From assembly GCA_035473115.1 (NCBI GenBank), contig DATION010000007.1, forward strand, positions 1 to 39,733: a stretch of 39,733 nucleotides of DNA. Reading direction: 5' to 3'. The DNA is from Candidatus Udaeobacter sp. GTDB taxonomy: Bacteria; Patescibacteriota; Patescibacteriia; Magasanikbacterales; GWA2-37-8. Position numbers and translations under genes: made by a program. Shown in pieces: positions 7,589 through 24,617 of this stretch (position 1 is its first letter; each line of letters begins with the position of its first letter). Below the pieces are notes generated by a model, which searched no databases, was not told the DNA's origin, and saw only the letters and a program-made list of their open reading frames with translations.

Positions 7589-9664
7589 CTAGTCCAGACT
7601 TTCCAGCCATTTCAGCAAGGCAGGTAAGTATTTGTACTGCCCCGGTGTTTTATAGCCATGGCCTTCACCAGGCAGAATTAGGCATACGACCTGTTTGCCC
7701 ATGGCAATAGCTTTGTAGCAGAAGTTAAGTGTCTCGTCAGTCGGAACCCTATTATCGGATCCTCCTGCGTCGAGAAACAGCGGAACGCTCAGCAGATCAA
7801 TGTGGTTTATCGGAGATCGGTCGTTCCACTTGTCGATGATTTCCTTCGGCCACTTGTCCGGATCTTTGTCTAGATCCGCAAATTTCATAAGGTCCTTGTA
7901 CCAGAGTCGAATGTTTCCGTTCTTGAGGGCGTTGATGAGATCAGAAATTCCAAAATCACTCCACCCGAACCCAAACTGGAAACTTTCGGTTATGCCGTCG
8001 ACCTGGCCTGGGAAGGTTAACGCGCGTAAGGTGTCATAACCCCCGCGGCTACCCCCGAACACTCCGATCTGTTTGTTTGGTACCTTGAGGTAATTAGCCA
8101 GCCATTTCCCGGCCTTCAGTGCATCAAGCGTTTCCATTCCTCCCAAATCACCATATCCCATAGTCTGGAATTTGATGCCAAAGTCTGTGGTACCTCTTGG
8201 AGCCGGACTCATTACATAATATCCGGCAGCGCACAGAATTTGGAAGTAGGTATTCCATCTGTTGAACCCACCGTAAAACGATAGGACCATGCCTTTTTTG
8301 TTGGCGCCGGTCTGTGGGTTTTTGGGAGAAAGGAGGTAGGCATGGAGTTGACCGTTTTTTTCTCCTTCGACTTCAGGCCTGTTCTCGCTTTTTGAGTCGG
8401 AAGCATCGAAGCTTACTTTTTGATAAGTACATTGCCGGAGTTGGTTTAGTAACTCCGGCGGATATCCACCGCGGTCAAAGACTTTGATCTGGCCGTCAGT
8501 GATGACAGCTTCTCGTTGGGTAAATGGATCATCCAGAGCACTTGTATAGAACCCAATTCTGCTCCCGCCGTAGTCGTCAATAGTAACTGTTCCAGCAAAT
8601 TCCTTGCTATCTACAACCTTGCCGTTTGTCCAGTCGATAGACATCAGGCTAGTCCGGAGAGGATTTCCCTCCAGGCCAATCACATATACCTTGCCGCTAG
8701 GTTGGCGGATAGCTATGGCGTCTTTCATGTTTTTGCCAGGTGGAGAAACCAGCCTGGTTTTACCACTCGTGAGGTCATATGCGTACACCAGAGTCTCGTC
8801 TGTATCCTCATCCGTAGCGAATAAAAAGTGAGACGCATCAGGCCACTCGTTGAGTGGATACATGTCGATCCGCTTTTTACTGGTATCACTAAGAACTCTC
8901 GGTTCTCCGCTGCCGTCCAAGGGAATGTAGATCAGGTTGTTTCTCTGACGGTCACTGTTAGCCACGAACTGAACTACGAGAGCTTTTCCATCAGGACGCC
9001 AAGCTGGTCCACCCCAGGTTAGTTTCATACTGGGAGGTGAGTCGCGGTACACAACCCGTTCGCTGTAGTTACTTAAGTCTAGAATATAAATAGCTCCTGA
9101 TGAAGCTTCGTCTTTGGCAGAGCGGCCAGTGTACACCAGAGATCGACGGTCCGGACTTACAGTCAAGCCGTATACGTAATACACACCCTCGCCGGTAATC
9201 TTACGCTCTTCTCCCGTTTTGAGGTCGAGAGCATAAAGTACTTTGTTCTCATCATTGACCTGGTCGGCCAACATGATGATCTCTCCGGGACGTTGCGGAT
9301 TACAGAATGCTCCGCCAAAGTTCCGTTTGGCAAAGTCGCGCGGAGAAATAATCCTCCCCTTGCTGAAATCGACCCGCTCTTCGCTGCGCGGATCGAATTT
9401 CACCATCATCAGCCGTTCTTGTTCTCCCTTGAGTTTGTAAAACATGGCTCCACAACCGATGTCCACGATTGGAGCGGTGTAGGGCCAGCCCTCGAGGTAG
9501 GCGGTGAGGTTGATCTCCCTGTTTCCTTTGAAATGGAAGATTTTATCCGGCGGCTTTCCTGTTGCTGCCGTGCTGGCAGTCGATTGCACTGGGTGGATGG
9601 AGCAGGCGGAAGCTAGCCCCAATACCCCTAACAACAACACTAACGCAAAATTCACTTTTCTCAT
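7589..9664 (-). CDS. S9 (prolyl oligopeptidase family) serine peptidase lipoprotein with a TolB-like beta-propeller
   Basis: ATG 9664 after AGGAGG; lipobox LASAC; GGSRGG nucleophile elbow, DNRV and GEGH triad motifs; SPDR/RPDG propeller repeats. Confidence 0.88.
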   Translation of the reverse strand: MRKVNFALVLLLGVLGLASACSIHPVQSTASTAATGKPPDKIFHFKGNREINLTAYLEGWPYTAPIVDIGCGAMFYKLKGEQERLMMVKFDPRSEERVDFSKGRIISPRDFAKRNFGGAFCNPQRPGEIIMLADQVNDENKVLYALDLKTGEERKITGEGVYYVYGLTVSPDRRSLVYTGRSAKDEASSGAIYILDLSNYSERVVYRDSPPSMKLTWGGPAWRPDGKALVVQFVANSDRQRNNLIYIPLDGSGEPRVLSDTSKKRIDMYPLNEWPDASHFLFATDEDTDETLVYAYDLTSGKTRLVSPPGKNMKDAIAIRQPSGKVYVIGLEGNPLRTSLMSIDWTNGKVVDSKEFAGTVTIDDYGGSRIGFYTSALDDPFTQREAVITDGQIKVFDRGGYPPELLNQLRQCTYQKVSFDASDSKSENRPEVEGEKNGQLHAYLLSPKNPQTGANKKGMVLSFYGGFNRWNTYFQILCAAGYYVMSPAPRGTTDFGIKFQTMGYGDLGGMETLDALKAGKWLANYLKVPNKQIGVFGGSRGGYDTLRALTFPGQVDGITESFQFGFGWSDFGISDLINALKNGNIRLWYKDLMKFADLDKDPDKWPKEIIDKWNDRSPINHIDLLSVPLFLDAGGSDNRVPTDETLNFCYKAIAMGKQVVCLILPGEGHGYKTPGQYKYLPALLKWLESLD

Positions 9665-15950: not shown

Positions 15951-17117
15951 ATGGAATATATTTCTCAATTTCAAAAACAGTTCCCATTGAGTCGGAAAAA
16001 GTTTTATAAGAAAATTGTAGCGAAGCTGCCGGCATTAGCCATAGTGTCTGTTTGTCTTCCTATGATTATTTACTCAATGAGTAGGGTTATTTTTTTGGTT
16101 ACAACTTTTAAGTTAAACAATATTCGGGCCGGCGGTTCAATTCCAGAGATCGGCTTGTCTCAGCTGCTTGATAAGTATATTTTTGGCGCTTTGTTGGGTT
16201 TATTAGTCTTGCTTATTATTTATGGTCTTTATATTAGCGCGTACATTAAAAGATATTATTATGATTCCACTGATTTTATCACTATAAAAAAAGGTGTTTT
16301 TACGCCAACAGAAATTCATGTTCAGTATAAAAAAATTCAGGATGTGTATGTTGATCAAGATTTATTGGATCGCTTTTTTGGCATATACGACGTGCATATT
16401 GCCAGCGCCACTTATACTTCTGGCATTGAAGCGCACATAGATGGAGTTGACACTCAAACTGCGGAAGCTCTAAAAAATTATATTTTAGCTAAAATACAGA
16501 ATGGCACGGACGCCGTATCTGCCGGAATAAACAATTCAGCAACTAGGGAGTTGGTAAAACCTGTAGATATAAATTTTAGCGAAGAAATTTCCAGCAATAC
16601 TTTTCCTATTGATGATAGATGGTATATGCAAGTAGTGTTCAGCGGCATTATCAGTTCAATAATTTTGACCATATTAATTGTTTTTGTAATTTTTGGCACA
16701 GTTTTTCTTCACTATTTTTCCTTAATAACTAATTTTATTGTTTGTTTTATTCTGTTTGCTGTTCTTTTAGCATGGCAAATAATTTATTCTGCAGCCTGGA
16801 AAGGAAAATTTTATTTTGCTTTCCAGCCGCAATTTATTATGCAAAAAACCGGAGTCATTACTTCTCAAGAAATACATTTGCCATATAAATCTATTCAGGA
16901 TGTGATAATTAATCAAAGTTTTTTCGAAAAAGTTTTTGGACTATGTACTGTTACAATACAAAATGCTGTTAATGCAAGTATGGTTAATGGGAAAGGCGGA
17001 GTTAGCTCGGGTAGTTCCGGGATGGTTCTTGTAGGCCAGCCTTTAGAAAAAGGGCAGAGACTGGTAGAGGAGTTAAACAAAGTTTTGGCGCTCAAGAATG
17101 ATTTAATGGGTCTGTAG
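15951..17117 (+). CDS. Membrane protein with two bacterial PH (bPH_2) domains
   Basis: Two TM-TM-PH modules with the repeated motif Y..IQDV...Q....FG. Confidence 0.8.
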   Translation: MEYISQFQKQFPLSRKKFYKKIVAKLPALAIVSVCLPMIIYSMSRVIFLVTTFKLNNIRAGGSIPEIGLSQLLDKYIFGALLGLLVLLIIYGLYISAYIKRYYYDSTDFITIKKGVFTPTEIHVQYKKIQDVYVDQDLLDRFFGIYDVHIASATYTSGIEAHIDGVDTQTAEALKNYILAKIQNGTDAVSAGINNSATRELVKPVDINFSEEISSNTFPIDDRWYMQVVFSGIISSIILTILIVFVIFGTVFLHYFSLITNFIVCFILFAVLLAWQIIYSAAWKGKFYFAFQPQFIMQKTGVITSQEIHLPYKSIQDVIINQSFFEKVFGLCTVTIQNAVNASMVNGKGGVSSGSSGMVLVGQPLEKGQRLVEELNKVLALKNDLMGL

Positions 17118-18288: not shown

Positions 18289-19584
18289 ATGCCAGTTTTT
18301 AAAAAAATAATTCATTTTTTATTAGCTTGGTCTGCCTACTGGTGGTATGGCCGTCCGTCTCGCAAGCTAATTGTTGTGGGAGTAACGGGCACTAAAGGCA
18401 AGTCAACTTCTTGTCGACTAATCGCTTCTGTTTTGGAAGCTGGGGGCAATAAAGTTGGGCTTTTAACTACTGTGGAGTTTCAAATTGGCGACAAGCGCTG
18501 GCTCAATGATAAAAAGATGACCATGCTTGGTCGCGGCCAAATTCAAAGCATGCTCAGGCAAATGGTTAAAGCCGGCTGTAAATATGCGGTGGTAGAAACT
18601 TCTTCGGAAGGAATTTTGCAGTACCGTCATTACGGATTAAATTATGATATTTCCGTCTTCACCAATTTGGGAACAGAGCATAGCGAAAGGCATGGCGGGT
18701 TTGCCAATTTAAAAAGAGATAAAGGAAAAATTTTTTCCCAATTAATGAGCAGGAAAAATAAAATAATGGCTGGCCAGAAAGTTTCTAAAATTATTGTCGC
18801 TAATTTTGATGATCAGCATGCGGATTATTTTTGGCAATTCAAAGCTGATGAAAAATATGGCTTTGGAATTAAGAATAGTGCTCAGACTAGCAATTTTGTT
18901 TTGGGAAAAAATATTATGGCTAATGAAAACGGCAGTGAATTTGAAGTTGGCGCTAATAAATATAAATTAAATATTTTAGGAGAATTTAATGTTTATAACG
19001 CTTTGGCAGCTATTGCGGTTGGCCAATCGCAAAATATTTCTGCAGATAAAATCGCTGCCGGGTTGGCCAGTGTAAAATTAGTTGAAGGCCGAATGGAACT
19101 GGTAAATCCAGGCGAAGACTTTAAAGTGATTGTTGATTATGCTCACGAACCAATGAGTTTGACCGAACTGTTTAAAAGTTTGCGTCGGCTTGTTGGCGCA
19201 GATCATAAAATAATTTCCGTAATCGGCTCAGACGGCGGCGGTCGCGATAAAGGCAAAAGAGAATTAATGGGAGAGTTGGCTGGCAAATTGACTGACTTTG
19301 TAGTTGTTACGGATGTAAATTGTTATGATGAAGACCCAAAACAGATTGCCGAAATGTTGGCCGTTGGCGCCAGAAAAGCCGATAAAAAAGATAACACAGA
19401 TCTGTTTGTGGTGGTTGATAGGCGAGAAGCGATAGCTAAAGCTATTTCTTTGGCCAAAGCCGGAGATGTGGTAGTAATTACCGCCAAAGGTACAGAGCCA
19501 TTTATTGGTATAGCTGGCGGCCAAAAAATTCCTTGGGATGATAGAAAAGTAGCCAGAGAAATTTTAGCCGGTTTGTCTAAATAA
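18289..19584 (+). CDS. murE: MurE-type Mur ligase
   Basis: VTGTKGKST P-loop, VETSSEG, FTNL..EH, FNVYN, GRME, VDYAHEP, GGGRDKGKR. Confidence 0.9.
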   Translation: MPVFKKIIHFLLAWSAYWWYGRPSRKLIVVGVTGTKGKSTSCRLIASVLEAGGNKVGLLTTVEFQIGDKRWLNDKKMTMLGRGQIQSMLRQMVKAGCKYAVVETSSEGILQYRHYGLNYDISVFTNLGTEHSERHGGFANLKRDKGKIFSQLMSRKNKIMAGQKVSKIIVANFDDQHADYFWQFKADEKYGFGIKNSAQTSNFVLGKNIMANENGSEFEVGANKYKLNILGEFNVYNALAAIAVGQSQNISADKIAAGLASVKLVEGRMELVNPGEDFKVIVDYAHEPMSLTELFKSLRRLVGADHKIISVIGSDGGGRDKGKRELMGELAGKLTDFVVVTDVNCYDEDPKQIAEMLAVGARKADKKDNTDLFVVVDRREAIAKAISLAKAGDVVVITAKGTEPFIGIAGGQKIPWDDRKVAREILAGLSK

Positions 19585-19589
19585 TATTT

Positions 19590-20210
19590 ATGAACCTCGC
19601 TAAAAAAATTAATCTAAAAGAAAACGAGGCTGTAGCCGAGATTATCAAACCAGCGGCAATTACTTATGTTTGGAAGTATTTATTTGGACTAGTATTTTTA
19701 TTTGCCGCTTCGTTTTTTATGTTCCGCCTCTTTGATTATGGTTGGTGGGGAGATGCCATTTACGGGCTGGGAATATTTCTGGGATTATATATAATTTTAC
19801 GCGCTTGGTTTATGCGCAATGCCAACCTTTTTGTTATTACCAGCGATAGAATTGTGGATATACACCGAGCGGGCTGGTTGGAAGAAATTATTTCTGCTGT
19901 CAGTTATTTGGATATAAAAGATATAGCCATCAGAAAAAAAGGCATTGGCCAAAGTTTATTTAATTTTGGCAGTTTAACTATTGCCACAAAAGATGAACGT
20001 TTAATTTTGGAAATTATAAATATTAGCCATCCGGCCAAAATTCAGCTGCTGCTTGCCGAAGCCGGTCAGCAGTATAAACAAAATCTTAATTTAACAAATT
20101 CACGGGCGATTTATAATAATTTTATTAAAATAATTCCCAATTTAACGGATGTTGATCTAAAAGAAACGCGGCGATTAATTGATGAGCAGCTTGGAACTAA
20201 TATGGTATAA
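19590..20210 (+). CDS. Membrane protein with a bPH domain
   Basis: Two TM segments then ITSDRIVDI...IKDI...FNFGSLTI. Confidence 0.75.
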   Translation: MNLAKKINLKENEAVAEIIKPAAITYVWKYLFGLVFLFAASFFMFRLFDYGWWGDAIYGLGIFLGLYIILRAWFMRNANLFVITSDRIVDIHRAGWLEEIISAVSYLDIKDIAIRKKGIGQSLFNFGSLTIATKDERLILEIINISHPAKIQLLLAEAGQQYKQNLNLTNSRAIYNNFIKIIPNLTDVDLKETRRLIDEQLGTNMV

Positions 20211-20234
20211 TATTTACAACATTATTTTTATAAT

Positions 20235-20663
20235 TCCCCGCTTGGGCGGGGTAGGGGTGGGTTGGCATATTTTTATGGAAAAATTATTATTCCCATTGTA
20301 TAGCCAAAAATTGATTGACCGAGCAAGATGGTTAAGAAAAAATTCCACCTCTTCAGAAGTTTTGCTTTGGGAAAAAATAAAAGGACGGCAAATTTATAAT
20401 TATAAATTTAGACGACAAACACCAATTCTCAAGTATATTGTTGATTTTTACTGTAAAGAACTTAGTTTAGCGATTGAAATAGATGGGTTAAGTCATGATT
20501 ATAAAATGAAATATGATTTTATCAGACAAAAAGATTTAGAAAATGCTGGAGTTAGTTTGTTGCGGTTTAATGATTTGGAAGTTAAGCAGGATATTCAAAA
20601 TGTTTTACAAAGAATAAGTGATTGGATTGAAGCCAACCCACCCCTACCCCGCCCAAGCGGGGA
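20235..20663. mobile_element. DUF559 gene bounded by perfect 32-bp inverted repeats (putative miniature mobile element)
   Basis: 20235-20266 tccccgcttgggcggggtaggggtgggttggc is the exact reverse complement of 20632-20663. Confidence 0.65.
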
Positions 20664-20667
20664 GTGA
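20275..20667 (+). CDS. DUF559 (Vsr-like) endonuclease-domain protein
   Basis: ARWLRKNST.SE..LW, KFRRQ, YIVDFYC, IEIDG.SH, RQKDLE, LRF.D motifs. Confidence 0.9.
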   Translation: MEKLLFPLYSQKLIDRARWLRKNSTSSEVLLWEKIKGRQIYNYKFRRQTPILKYIVDFYCKELSLAIEIDGLSHDYKMKYDFIRQKDLENAGVSLLRFNDLEVKQDIQNVLQRISDWIEANPPLPRPSGE

Positions 20668-20686
20668 TTTGATATTTTAAAAAGCT

Positions 20687-21079
20687 ATGCCTTCGGTAAA
20701 AGAAAACGGCTGGAAGTTATTTTTAGGATCTCGGCTTTTTATTTTGGTAGCTGCCATTATTGCGATAATGGTAATGTTCGCTTATGGAAGAGCGTATTAT
20801 CAGGACTATTTAGTACGGCAGGAAATTTCTCAATTACAGGATCAGGCCAAAAAATTAGAAGCTAAAAAGATGGAATTGTTGGAAGTTCTCAAATATGTAA
20901 AATCCGATAGTTTTACCGAAGAAAAAGCCCGTACCGAATTAAATATGGCCAAACCGGGGGAGCAGATTCTAGTAGTGCCGAAGTCCGATATATCAAGCAA
21001 TAGACAAGAAGCTGGCAGCATGGTAACATTGGAAGGTATTCCAAATTATAAAAAATGGTTACAATATTTTGTTAACTAA
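20687..21079 (+). CDS. FtsB/DivIC-like septum formation initiator
   Basis: TM, coiled coil, EEKARTELNMAKPGE. Confidence 0.8.
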   Translation: MPSVKENGWKLFLGSRLFILVAAIIAIMVMFAYGRAYYQDYLVRQEISQLQDQAKKLEAKKMELLEVLKYVKSDSFTEEKARTELNMAKPGEQILVVPKSDISSNRQEAGSMVTLEGIPNYKKWLQYFVN

Positions 21080-21102
21080 ATAATATTTAAGATAATTCAA
21101 CT

Positions 21103-22170
21103 ATGGACGAGCAAAATTTGGTCGGCGAAAATAACGTAAAAACAGAACAGAAAAACAATTCTTCAATGCGAAATTTTATTTTGCTTGGCGCGGCCGTTTT
21201 GGTAGCGGGAGCTGTTTTTGGACTTGGAGTTTATAAAGTTTATAGCAAAGCTTCTACTGATAGATTTTCTTTAGCTGTAGCTAAAGTTTTTGGTTTGCCA
21301 GCCGTAAAAATTGGCGATAAAAAAATCCCTTACAGCGCCTATGCCGAAGATTTACAGGCTATTCACACTATGCGCGCTTATGATAAATCACAGAGAGATT
21401 CCGGTGTTGGTCCAGAGCGCAGCCCTGGAGCTGATCTTACCGAAGACCAGATGAATGATCAGGTTTTATGGCGTTTGGTAAACAATTTATTGGTAAATGA
21501 AGCGGCGCAAAAATATGGCGTAACTGTTGAAGATAAAGATGTGCAAAATTTAAAAGCTCAGATGCTGCAGCAATTTAAAGATGAAGCGGCGGCAAATCAG
21601 GAATTAACCAAGCGTTATGGCTGGGATATGAGTATTTATGAACAAAAAGTAATGCGTCCATTTATTTTGCAGACAAAGTTAGCTCAAAAAATGAAAGAAG
21701 ATCCGCAAGTTAAAAAAGATTTACAGACTCAAGCGGAAAAAACTTTGGAAGAAGTAAAAAACGGCGCTGATTTTGCCGCTTTAGCCAGAAAATATAATGC
21801 TGACAGCACCGCTCAGACTGGCGGCGACCTAGGTTGGTTTAGCAAAGGAGAGATGGTGCCTGAATTTGAAAAAGCGGCTTTTTCTCTTAAGAAAGGGGAG
21901 GTCTATCCTACTTTAGTGCAGACTACTTACGGTTATCACATTATTAAATTAGACGACAAGCGCGTAGAGAAAATTAAAAATGCTAAAGGACAAATGGTTG
22001 ATACTGCGCAAGTTCGCGCCAGCCAAATCTTATTTAAATTTCCAGACTTATTATCTTTCTTAGACTCTTCAATTAAGAATGGCAATATCAAACTATATCT
22101 CAAAGTTCATAATCCGTTTGCCGAACTTAACGCTCAAGCTGGCAAAACATCTTCTGGTTCACAACAATAA
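21103..22170 (+). CDS. PrsA/SurA-like parvulin peptidyl-prolyl isomerase
   Basis: FAALARKYNAD, GGDLGWF, MVPEFEKAAF, YGYHIIK. Confidence 0.92.
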   Translation: MDEQNLVGENNVKTEQKNNSSMRNFILLGAAVLVAGAVFGLGVYKVYSKASTDRFSLAVAKVFGLPAVKIGDKKIPYSAYAEDLQAIHTMRAYDKSQRDSGVGPERSPGADLTEDQMNDQVLWRLVNNLLVNEAAQKYGVTVEDKDVQNLKAQMLQQFKDEAAANQELTKRYGWDMSIYEQKVMRPFILQTKLAQKMKEDPQVKKDLQTQAEKTLEEVKNGADFAALARKYNADSTAQTGGDLGWFSKGEMVPEFEKAAFSLKKGEVYPTLVQTTYGYHIIKLDDKRVEKIKNAKGQMVDTAQVRASQILFKFPDLLSFLDSSIKNGNIKLYLKVHNPFAELNAQAGKTSSGSQQ

Positions 22171-22283: not shown

Positions 22284-22354
22284 GCGGGCGTAGTATAGTG
22301 GTAATATGTGACCTTCCCAAGGTTAAGCTGTGGGTTCGATTCCCATCGCCCGCT
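22284..22354 (+). tRNA. tRNA-Gly(CCC)
   Basis: Acceptor gcgggcg/cgcccgc, anticodon loop ttCCCaa, TTCGATT loop; CCA not encoded. Confidence 0.95.
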
Positions 22355-22376
22355 CAATTGTCTAGAGCATATCCGC

Positions 22377-22447
22377 GCCCCCTTAGTTCAGTGGCAGAAC
22401 AGCGGTATCGTAAACCGCCAACGTCAGTCCGATTCTGACAGGGGGCT
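22377..22447 (+). tRNA. tRNA-Thr(CGT), atypical
   Basis: Acceptor gccccct/agggggc; gcggt-atCGTaa-accgc; T-loop TCCGATT. Confidence 0.88.
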
Positions 22448-22493
22448 CAAAAGTATTTATTACTTTATTAAATCATAAGTTAATTTAAAAAGT

Positions 22494-23750: not shown

Positions 23751-24617
23751 ATGCCAGATAAATATACGGCCACTTGGGTTTCTCATACCTCCATGAGTGA
23801 TTTTTTGCGTTGTCCGCGCGCTTATTATTTAAAAAATATCTATAAAGATCCAAAAACCAATCATAAAATAAAATTAATTAGTCCGGCTTTGGCTTTGGGT
23901 CAAGCTGTCCATGAAGTTTTGGAATCTTTATCTGTGCTGCCAAAACAGTCGCGGTTTTCCGAGTCGTTGATTGCTAAACTGGAAAAAGCTTGGACAAAAG
24001 TTTCCGGGAAAAATGGCGGTTTCACCAGTCCAGAGTCAGAATATAAATACAAAACACGCGGCCAAGACATGTTGCGACGAGTAATGAATAATCCTGGTCC
24101 GCTTTCCGGATTAGCCGTAAAAATCCAGATGGACTTGCCGCAGTTTTGGCTGTCCGAAGAAGATGGTATTATTTTATGCGGAAAGATTGATTGGCTGGAA
24201 TATCTGCCAGACACTGACAGTGTTCATATTATAGATTTCAAAACCGGAAAAGCCGAAGAGGATCCGGAATCTTTACAGCTGCCAATTTATCATTTACTGG
24301 TCAGTAACTGTCAGAAATACAAAGCCAGTAAAGCCAGCTATTGGTATTTAGATAGCAATGACAACTTAACACCCAAAGAATTGCCGGATTTAGAAGCTGC
24401 TCATAAAGCTGTTTTGGCTATTGCCAGGCAAGTAAAATTAGCCCGTCAATTACAAAGATTCAAGTGTCCGGCTGGCGAAGAAGGCTGCGGCGCTTGTCGC
24501 CCAATGGAAGCTATTTTTAACAGGCAAGCGGAATTTGTCGGAGTTGATGAGTATAAATATGATGTCTATATGCTTAATTATAATAAAGAAGAAAATAGGG
24601 AAGGGATTCTTTTGTAG
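23751..24617 (+). CDS. PD-(D/E)XK nuclease, AddB/RecB/Cas4-like, with a probable Fe-S staple
   Basis: SHTS...RCP, GQAVH, GKID, IIDFKTG, QL..Y; C-terminal CxxxxxxCxxC. Confidence 0.85.
   Translation: MPDKYTATWVSHTSMSDFLRCPRAYYLKNIYKDPKTNHKIKLISPALALGQAVHEVLESLSVLPKQSRFSESLIAKLEKAWTKVSGKNGGFTSPESEYKYKTRGQDMLRRVMNNPGPLSGLAVKIQMDLPQFWLSEEDGIILCGKIDWLEYLPDTDSVHIIDFKTGKAEEDPESLQLPIYHLLVSNCQKYKASKASYWYLDSNDNLTPKELPDLEAAHKAVLAIARQVKLARQLQRFKCPAGEEGCGACRPMEAIFNRQAEFVGVDEYKYDVYMLNYNKEENREGILL

Follow-up and report, generated by a model that had tools for sequence, protein, structure and literature searches.

We found that a 39,733-nt contig of a Patescibacteria genome (DATION010000007.1 of assembly GCA_035473115.1; this whole stretch of 39.7 kb is hereafter the window) carries a small element in which a gene for a putative nuclease of the DUF559 family is enclosed by two identical 32-bp repeats in inverted orientation. 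The element lies between the genes of a bPH_2 membrane protein and of a DivIC/FtsB-like protein. A preliminary description of the sequence had proposed a selfish element of ~430 bp, and this proposal has good support: all 20 related loci have the site without the cassette, similar cassettes occur in varied contexts, two paralogous cassettes are found on one contig, and the repeat is present elsewhere without the gene. We consider it probable, with appreciable room for doubt, that this is a minimal selfish cassette whose nuclease targets its own repeats and that spreads by break repair in a homing-like manner, a mechanism that we infer. Both components were already known, DUF559 on one hand and the BoxC/PIT/TM repeats on the other, and it is their partnership in a cassette that appears to be new; full-text searches of the literature, whose coverage excluded subscription-only papers, gave no paper that connects the two, and came closest with an enrichment of DUF559 among predicted inversions for which no explanation was given (PMC9881135).

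The gene order at the site is MurE-like ligase, bPH_2, cassette, DivIC/FtsB and PpiC/SurA-like. The cassette and its immediate neighbours are:

20233..20665, no strand: whole cassette (repeat, gene, inverted repeat; ~433 bp), outer limits approximate
20233..20266, plus strand: left repeat unit, its G-rich end facing the cassette interior, recognised by sequence, copy number and the boundary of 111 copies; it starts with an invariant A at -2 and one variable base, followed by the 32-nt core
Parts of the left unit: C-arm 20236-20241, loop TTGG, G-arm 20246-20251, loop TA, mirror G-strand 20254-20259, tail GGTTGGC
20275..20667, plus strand: putative DUF559 nuclease gene, 130 amino acids (aa), PF04480 at 105 bits
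20632..20665, minus strand: right repeat unit, the exact inverted left unit, overlapping the last 11 codons, its G-rich strand being the minus strand and facing inward
19590..20210, plus strand: bPH_2 membrane protein gene, left flank, profile match
20687..21079, plus strand: DivIC/FtsB-like gene, right flank, profile match

The sequence TCCCCGCTTGGGCGGGGTAGGGGTGGGTTGGC occupies positions 20235-20266 of the plus strand, and its exact reverse complement (32 nt) lies at 20632-20663. The window has no further copy of the 32-mer, even with up to three mismatches allowed (100 shuffles gave none), and the inverted arms lengthen to 37 nt at 95% complementarity once mismatches are permitted. Between the left arm and the ATG of the DUF559 gene (20275) lie 8 nt, and the right arm encodes the C-terminal residues ANPPLPRPSG(E), with the stop codon at 20665-20667. 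Both arms contain the hairpin CCCCGC-TTGG-GCGGGG (DNA fold of -8.2 kcal/mol, z-scores of -2.8 and -3.7) and the string of four G-runs GGGcGGGGtaGGGGtGGG. The preliminary description was therefore accurate on the exact enclosure of the gene, the spacing to the start codon, the repeat-encoded C-terminus, the hairpin and the G-runs. It had also reported no evident target-site duplication, and on re-examination we saw none either, a provisional result, given that no empty allele was available for comparison. Its portrayal of a GC-rich unit between AT-rich genes holds for the repeats and fails for the gene interior, where the GC content (0.28-0.34) is below the mean of the window (0.40).

The structure does not depend on a single assembly. 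An independent Logan assembly of SRR9656165 reproduced both junctions between flank and repeat. The contigs break off at 20261 and resume at 20634, both within a repeat arm, as expected where a graph of 31-mers meets a 32-bp inverted repeat; in all other respects the assembly agrees exactly with the window. The flank-repeat joins are therefore independently confirmed, and the link between arms and gene interior is given by the source assembly and by five independent contigs elsewhere with the same architecture. Assemblies with a short k, such as this one with k=31, will frequently split or lose cassettes of this kind, whose frequency in metagenomes is therefore probably underestimated.

The cassette is an insertion between bPH and ftsB. 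We retrieved relatives of the bPH protein (43-67% identity) from eight species-representative genomes (Magasanikbacteria and Parcubacteria-group metagenome-assembled genomes, MAGs) and from 12 metagenome contigs spanning the junction. The order murE-bPH-ftsB-ppiC was kept in all 20 loci, with a spacer of 13-151 nt from bPH to ftsB and no DUF559 gene. The empty site that the preliminary description suggested looking for is thus present in these relatives, and a resident gene, syntenic across relatives that lack the repeats, is not what we found. Given the divergence of the bPH proteins, this presence or absence at a conserved site is a difference between lineages, not between alleles. In three relatives the spacer contains a different palindromic repeat that resembles a miniature inverted-repeat transposable element (MITE), with the sequence TTGTCATTCTGAGCAAAGCGAAGAATCTCTGTC ... 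GACAGAGATCC..GGATGACAA (L105 3619-3736; L115 2458-2608; L125 286-377). Short TGTCATCC-type fragments of this repeat lie directly outside many of the 32-mer units, and the bPH-ftsB spacer therefore seems to be a hot spot for small palindromic elements.

The nearest homologues of the DUF559 protein (63-79% aa identity) are encoded in six contexts other than bPH-ftsB:

L001: between prepilin peptidase and DNA ligase (ligA)
L003: between Sm_multidrug_ex and prfA
L003, second copy: DUF4015 on one side
L007: Memo/PGA_cap on one side
L328: an unrelated 206-aa gene on one side
L330: among small open reading frames (ORFs)

Repeats of the window type bracket the gene in five out of the five loci examined (L330 was left out), with 0-2 mismatches in four of them and a diverged left arm in L007. 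The two L003 paralogues (89% identity) are separated by 4 kb, and both have repeats of their own on either side. We rejected L328 as an insertion at the same site because the 206-aa gene upstream is not bPH. These comparisons show gene and repeats to be mobile as one unit. Synonymous sites between the window gene and its close homologues are saturated (proportion of synonymous differences, pS, of 0.65-0.88), and the ratio of non-synonymous to synonymous rates (dN/dS) is 0.05-0.2. The protein is therefore under purifying selection, which speaks of selection only and says nothing of activity. The repeat is still identical at 31-32 of 32 positions despite this saturation, and must therefore be under much stronger constraint at the DNA level. 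In L328 the DNA of the right repeat is translated in another frame, giving NQPTPTPPKRGMP instead of ANPPLPRPSGE, hence conservation acts on the DNA and not on the peptide tail. The 3' end of the second L003 cassette (9138-9251) consists of a truncated inverted unit (A'), a unit of a variant type (B) and a full A' unit, and the ORF has grown to 160 aa (P0007). Units therefore insert beside or into one another.

An exact-pattern scan, with one genome per species, identified 97 stretches with the repeat, concentrated in few MAGs: the Patescibacteria H41-bin286_1 and H51-bin093_1 and several labelled 'uncultured Gammaproteobacteria', among which CAZXML01 is the closest relative of the window in that collection. 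Within these stretches a close DUF559 gene adjoins the repeat only at the loci corresponding to the L003 cassettes. Hence the repeats do occur elsewhere in related genomes, and a count with and without DUF559, as the preliminary description had recommended, gave many gene-less copies. Among 113 units we found 66 solo units, 33 in doublets, two distant pairs and 12 at contig ends. Doublets span 85-106 nt and have an inverted partner, usually a B unit, which has an extra 14-nt hairpin; the two that we folded form long hairpins (z-scores of -8.6 and -13.3). The boundaries of the units are sharp: an A stands at -2 in 111 of 111 copies, and a nearly invariant core gives way to random flanks. Units have been gained between relatives, e.g., between ftsE and ftsX in one MAG, where the spacer in the window is 2 nt. 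No copy of the 32-mer was found in viral contigs.

Some gene-less copies lie within genes. In L086 (2922-4376, minus strand) the repeat is in frame in the ORF of a putative 484-aa membrane protein (…NQPTPTPPKRGLL…), which resembles the Rickettsia palindromic elements (RPE) found in genes, and L012 and L071 have a comparable in-frame QPTPTPPERG. The last C of the stem together with the hairpin loop (20242-20246 in the window) reads CTWGG in 101 of 111 copies (CTTGG in 94, CTAGG in seven). This is the context nicked by Vsr of Escherichia coli at T:G mismatches, and the match may be a coincidence.

The pairing of gene and repeat extends far beyond the Patescibacteria. Homologues from many phyla have tails of the type NKPTPxPS[RQ]EGN, which back-translate to TCCCCTC-NNNN-GAGGGG-..-GGGGTGGGT, and therefore to the window repeat with a compensatory change in the stem. 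We used patterns of the catalytic core to fetch 80 DUF559 loci (48-59% identity; Bacteroidota, Planctomycetota, Nitrospirota, Kiritimatiellia, Cloacimonadota, Thermotogota and others), 72 of which had sufficient flanks, and searched them with a strict detector of units (a perfect hairpin whose stem has a length of 6 or more, and a perfect mirror strand). An inward-facing unit was present at most 260 nt upstream in 36 of the 72 loci, at or just past the stop codon in 45 and on both sides in 29; the loci had been ranked with a query that included the repeat-encoded tail, which may slightly inflate the downstream count, not the upstream one, and is to be held against our interpretation. Outward-facing units numbered 11 and 10, giving 81 inward against 21 outward. 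Control windows at least 500 nt away had a unit in only two of 272 cases. Strict units are thus ~70-85 times commoner beside DUF559 genes than in control windows, which puts a figure, and an inward bias, on the earlier remark that DUF559 genes often abut palindromes.

The reverse search with a generalised pattern matched at least 120 stretches (Cyanobacteria, Bacteroidota, Planctomycetota, Verrucomicrobiota and others). Among the matches listed, a DUF559 ORF is at most 250 nt away from 16 of 159 copies. When we clustered the ORFs within 200 nt of the repeat in the listed matches of this cross-phylum set, DUF559 was the sole recurrent family (eight loci); the next clusters had three or four members that look like ordinary cellular genes, and there was no recurrent transposase. 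Another mobilising gene beside the repeats was therefore rejected, the Patescibacteria set having given housekeeping families only and the listed matches of the cross-phylum set only DUF559. In a neighbour-joining tree, the proteins cluster according to repeat variant. Seven of them, that of the window included, form a clade with CCCCGC; a Pontibacter clade with GTCCCC takes in a Flavobacterium member as well; and further pairs share the CCCCCTT, CCCCCT or CCCCCCT variants. Gene and repeats are therefore inherited or transferred, and diverge, together. The pairing of DUF559 with the repeat is general across phyla, and includes ycjD of E. coli.

The units beside these genes have one design in every variant: a C-arm, a loop, a complementary G-arm, a short loop and a G-strand that mirrors the purine arm. 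Examples are CCCCTC / GAGGGG / GGGGTG, CCCCCTT / AAGGGGG / GGGGGAT, TCCTCCC / GGGAGGA / AGGTGGG and TTCCTCTC / GAGAGGAA / AAGGTGAG. An A in the purine arm is mirrored by T or A in the third strand. The mirror strand is perfect in 95 of 203 distinct units beside DUF559 genes, against 11.5 +/- 2.9 (maximum 21) after shuffling of the 3' flanks, and these 95 span 18 distinct combinations of arm and third strand. The unit of the window (CCCCGC-ttgg-GCGGGG-ta-GGGGTG) makes five of six triads, with a T opposite a C:G pair. Judged by this design, the repeat belongs to the BoxC/PIT/TMECO class of intrastrand-triplex motifs. The BoxC/PIT literature reportedly goes back to work by Bachellier in the 1990s and by Hoyne and Maher in 2000. 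For TMECO, an intrastrand triplex was shown in vitro, type A and type B units form inverted pairs, the motif is tied to unstable loci, and the published 'mm' types likewise carry one mismatch (PMC4666352). That work saw neither a connection with mobile elements nor any common function of the neighbouring genes, and mentions neither ycjD nor a nuclease (PMC4666352).

The window unit shares with BoxC/PIT/TMECO the architecture, the dispersed and mostly intergenic copies, the inverted A+B pairs and a copy number that differs sharply between related strains; the dispersal is a trait of the related genomes (97 stretches), the window itself having only the two flanking copies. It differs in its arms of 6 nt (not 9), its second loop of 2 nt, its one mismatched T, its Patescibacteria host and in bracketing a nuclease gene. 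It does not match the published TMECO pattern, CCCTCNCCC-N3-6-GGGNGAGGG-N3-GGGNGAGGG. With 6-nt arms of a different sequence, it is therefore a relative within the motif class and not a copy of TMECO. The preliminary description had called the repeat 'G-quadruplex-type'. An energy model that accounts for quadruplexes (with RNA parameters) agrees for the window variant, at -23.6 kcal/mol for the quadruplex against -11.8 kcal/mol, and favours no quadruplex for the variants of Bacteroidota, Pontibacter, L182 and TMECO. The four G-runs are not conserved across variants and the covariation fits the triplex motif, so we rejected a pure G-quadruplex reading for the family; the G-quadruplex is therefore a property of one variant, not a conserved feature.

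A published member of the motif class adjoins a DUF559 gene in E. coli. The ycjD gene of strain K-12 (DUF559) ends ...NRRSPSP, followed by its stop codon, within a degenerate unit. Some 170 nt 3' of it lies CCCTCGCCCCTCTGGGGAGAGGGTTAGGGTGAGGGG, which is TMECO no. 9, published at 1,351,204-1,351,239 (Holder et al., PMC4666352). The interval L327 7190-7430 (K-12 1,351,190-1,351,430) contains a ~45-nt partial duplicate of the 3' end of ycjD, followed by TMECO no. 9; this arrangement points to an insertion that was nested or aborted. Of 5,426 complete E. coli genomes searched with a composite of ycjD and TMECO, 3,377 have ycjD. A separate paper reports that the gene occupies fabI-sapF in precisely those cases in which the eefRABCD operon is missing (PMC12817139). 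In a spread sample, genomes with ycjD had 16-33 TMECO places (median 22) and genomes lacking it 2-20 (median 6.5), a difference that agrees with the mechanism favoured below but is confounded by phylogroup; O157:H7, from which ycjD is absent, still has 14.

The protein matches Pfam PF04480 with 105 bits (cut-off 20.6, E=2.4e-30, profile positions 2-107 of 109), and DUF559 and MTES_1575 are the only Pfam matches of the ORF. It scores 71 bits with NCBIfam PRK09767, the YcjD equivalog, and is therefore not a YcjD equivalog (cut-off 218). Residues D57, E68, D70 and H74, in a core VDF...IExDGxxH, are invariant among 19 homologues. The AlphaFold2 (AF2) model (pLDDT 85) matches NGO0050 (3HRL, E=6e-8) and the catalytic domain of I-Bth0305I (3R3P, E=8e-5), and more weakly Vsr (1VSR/1CW0); the repeat-encoded residues 121-130 are disordered in it. 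The model thus predicts a Vsr-fold, PD-(D/E)XK-type putative nuclease. A role in defence was rejected, the only matches of this kind being weak ones in PADLOC (methyl-directed restriction endonuclease, nuclease core) and PHROG (HNH and homing endonucleases).

YcjD, NGO0050 and VsrA are members of this Pfam family too; the best match by sequence as well as by structure is 3HRL, and YcjD also ends in a repeat unit. To our knowledge, none of the three has a demonstrated substrate. VsrA, a DUF559-domain protein, provokes a DNA-damage response in Caulobacter cells that lack a cytosine methylase (PMC12907096). The proposal for VsrA is a mismatch nickase coupled to a cytosine methylase, a partner that was not seen in the window. 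Vsr-like nucleases also include true homing endonucleases (PMC2677866). The window protein shares the predicted catalytic fold with I-Bth0305I and the Vsr-like (EDxHD) genes of 'fractured genes' (Dassa et al. 2009, PMC2677866; Foldseek E=8e-5), and these too are small free-standing genes, present or absent at conserved sites. It differs from them in having 130 aa with DUF559 only and no extra DNA-binding domain, and its gene is not in an intron or intein and splits no gene. Known homing endonuclease genes, unlike this one, are not bracketed by a dispersed repeat.

Elsewhere in the window there is a second, larger bPH_2 protein (15951-17117), a PDDEXK_1 nuclease gene (23751-24617) that is kept in relatives and is unrelated to the cassette, and adjacent genes for tRNA-Gly(CCC) and tRNA-Thr(CGT) (22284-22448). 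No DNA methyltransferase, transposase (including Y1 transposases) or recombinase was detected among the window ORFs of at least 100 aa. Rfam had no match within 19500-21200, and scans for promoters and terminators at the cassette gave no convincing signal.

In the mechanism that we favour, the nuclease would recognise either the sequence of the repeat or the hairpin or triplex into which it may fold, and would nick or cut at or near the repeat. Recombination or repair by the host would then copy the cassette, and perhaps bare units too, to new sites, as with a free-standing homing endonuclease. PD-(D/E)XK nucleases cut DNA and do not join strands. Such a nuclease is on its own incapable of strand transfer, which makes classical transposition unlikely, and since the element encodes no enzyme for this step, its spread would be homing-like rather than transposase-like. 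A transposon with terminal inverted repeats (TIR), or a MITE, was rejected: inverted repeats are present, but we saw no target-site duplication (provisionally) and found no transposase. The repeat does share with MITEs and RPE its short, palindromic, gene-less intergenic copies and their occasional presence in frame within a gene (L086). It differs from them in that neither a transposase partner nor a target-site duplication was seen and in that most copies are single units, not TIR pairs.

Several observations weigh against this mechanism. Arms of 32 bp are short as homology for recombinational copying, and we know of no activity, binding or cut site for the small DUF559 proteins. Gene-less doublets are of the type A...B' in 31 of 32 cases, and the five Patescibacteria cassettes checked (window, L001, the two of L003, and L328) are A...A'; homing into doublets, or an origin of doublets by internal deletion of a cassette, therefore fits poorly. 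Only ~10% of the generalised copies, among the matches listed, are near DUF559. Most units being far from such a gene, and E. coli lineages that lack ycjD still having 2-20 TMECO copies, the repeats must persist, and perhaps spread, without it. In one repeat-rich MAG (L069 6351-6885) a doublet on one side and an inverted solo unit on the other enclose the housekeeping gene rnpA, whose neighbours are rpmH and yidD, and the rnpA ORF runs into the repeat, a chance look-alike of the DUF559 arrangement. Bracketing alone can therefore arise by chance in repeat-rich genomes; the window, by contrast, has no units in its 39.7 kb besides the two identical ones that enclose DUF559. Finally, scans of genomes and metagenome contigs with bPH found no close empty allele (the best relatives were at most 67% identical), and exact-protein look-ups of bPH and FtsB returned the same population only, with contigs broken within the repeat arms. 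The outer limits of the cassette, and with them the junction, are therefore approximate.

The main rival is a role of the kind known for REP (repetitive extragenic palindromic) sequences and RAYT (REP-associated tyrosine transposases), in which a largely vertical, possibly host-useful DUF559 gene would create and maintain the gene-less units, the flanking units would be the founding copies and the gene itself would not spread. We regard this as unlikely, although the resemblance is real. In both systems a small gene lies between inverted hairpin repeats and there are gene-less singlets and inverted doublets, such as the many solo units and A+B' doublets of the sister genomes; the published inverted pairs of TMECO types A and B mirror the REP doublets named REPINs (PMC4666352). 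The ycjD gene has a fixed locus, fabI-sapF, and genomes that carry it have more TMECO places (medians of 22 and 6.5), but the confounding by phylogroup, and the 14 places of O157:H7, weaken this contrast. Moreover, RAYT are IS200/IS605-type Y1 HUH transposases in single copy and with vertical descent, whereas here we have a predicted Vsr-fold PD-(D/E)XK-type enzyme, and neither the window ORFs nor the recurrent neighbours of the repeat (among the matches listed) include a Y1 transposase. The window gene is a lineage-specific insertion missing in 20 relatives, its close homologues are in differing contexts and include two paralogues on one contig, and homologues at 48-59% identity have a patchy spread across many phyla. 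REP also lack the third, mirror strand, and the 39.7 kb of the window have no gene-less unit.

Alternatively, the association might be passive: units spread by an unknown enzyme, or by slippage in replication or repair, would gather by small, horizontally acquired DUF559 genes whose nuclease has an unrelated job. The ~90% of generalised units (among the matches listed) that are not near DUF559 would fit, as would the presence of units at many intergenic sites and even in frame within genes, the chance bracketing of rnpA and the different palindromic repeat in the bPH-ftsB spacer of three relatives. We nevertheless find this explanation quite improbable in view of the 70-85-fold enrichment beside the gene with its inward bias, of DUF559 being the only recurrent neighbour (among the matches listed), and of the clustering of the protein tree by repeat variant. 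The overlap of the right unit with the stop codon in many phyla also speaks against it, as does the fact that the only two units of the window flank the gene and are identical.

It seems very unlikely that the protein is an orphan Vsr-like nickase of very-short-patch repair, as proposed for VsrA of Caulobacter, with repeats that serve as expression signals for a potentially toxic gene. Such signals, with a chance just as small, might be a stabilising 3' hairpin, a pairing of the 5' and 3' ends of the transcript (which would have complementary 32-nt ends) or an insulation against read-through. The predicted Vsr-like fold, the DNA-damage response provoked by the Caulobacter protein (PMC12907096) and the CTWGG pattern of a Vsr site in 101 of 111 hairpin loops are compatible with this view. 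Expression signals leave the gene-less copies, the insertion polymorphism and the changing contexts unexplained, though, and there is no cytosine methyltransferase among the window ORFs of at least 100 aa. Nor do the signals themselves find support: the cassette has no convincing promoter or terminator, and PIT elements had no such activity in the tests by Maher that are mentioned in PMC4666352. Finally, an invertible segment that switches the gene by programmed inversion at the repeats is extremely unlikely: DUF559 is enriched (odds ratio 14.3) among predicted gene-altering inversions, but the criterion for these was that one arm of an inverted repeat falls within a coding sequence, so that the enrichment follows from the repeat geometry described here, and the DUF559 cases were not validated there (PMC9881135). 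The window has no recombinase among its ORFs of at least 100 aa, and with identical arms an inversion would not alter the protein.

In a bolder generalisation, possible and in our view rather doubtful, DUF559 nucleases would throughout bacteria supply the protein partner that is missing for the BoxC/PIT/TM repeats. This would be a second symbiosis of the REP/RAYT kind, in which a Vsr-fold enzyme recognises folded hairpin or triplex DNA; the system would spread as cassettes and as bare units, and would cause the genome instability linked to the motif, including at ycjD of E. coli.

DUF559 is a very large nuclease family, which includes YcjD of E. coli, and we know of no substrate for it. The BoxC/PIT/TMECO repeats have been known since the 1990s and in hundreds of genomes, where they mark unstable loci; their origin, function and spread have had no explanation (PMC4666352). 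If our interpretation is true, these two old unknowns would explain each other. The link is specific, directional and co-evolutionary, from Patescibacteria to Bacteroidota, Planctomycetota and E. coli, and gives each a candidate partner. It also accounts for the presence of DUF559 among predicted 'programmed inversions' (PMC9881135). The question becomes directly testable in E. coli K-12, with YcjD and TMECO DNA, and a positive answer would add a new enzyme class to the few selfish systems that combine a nuclease with a repeat, such as REP/RAYT and homing endonuclease genes.

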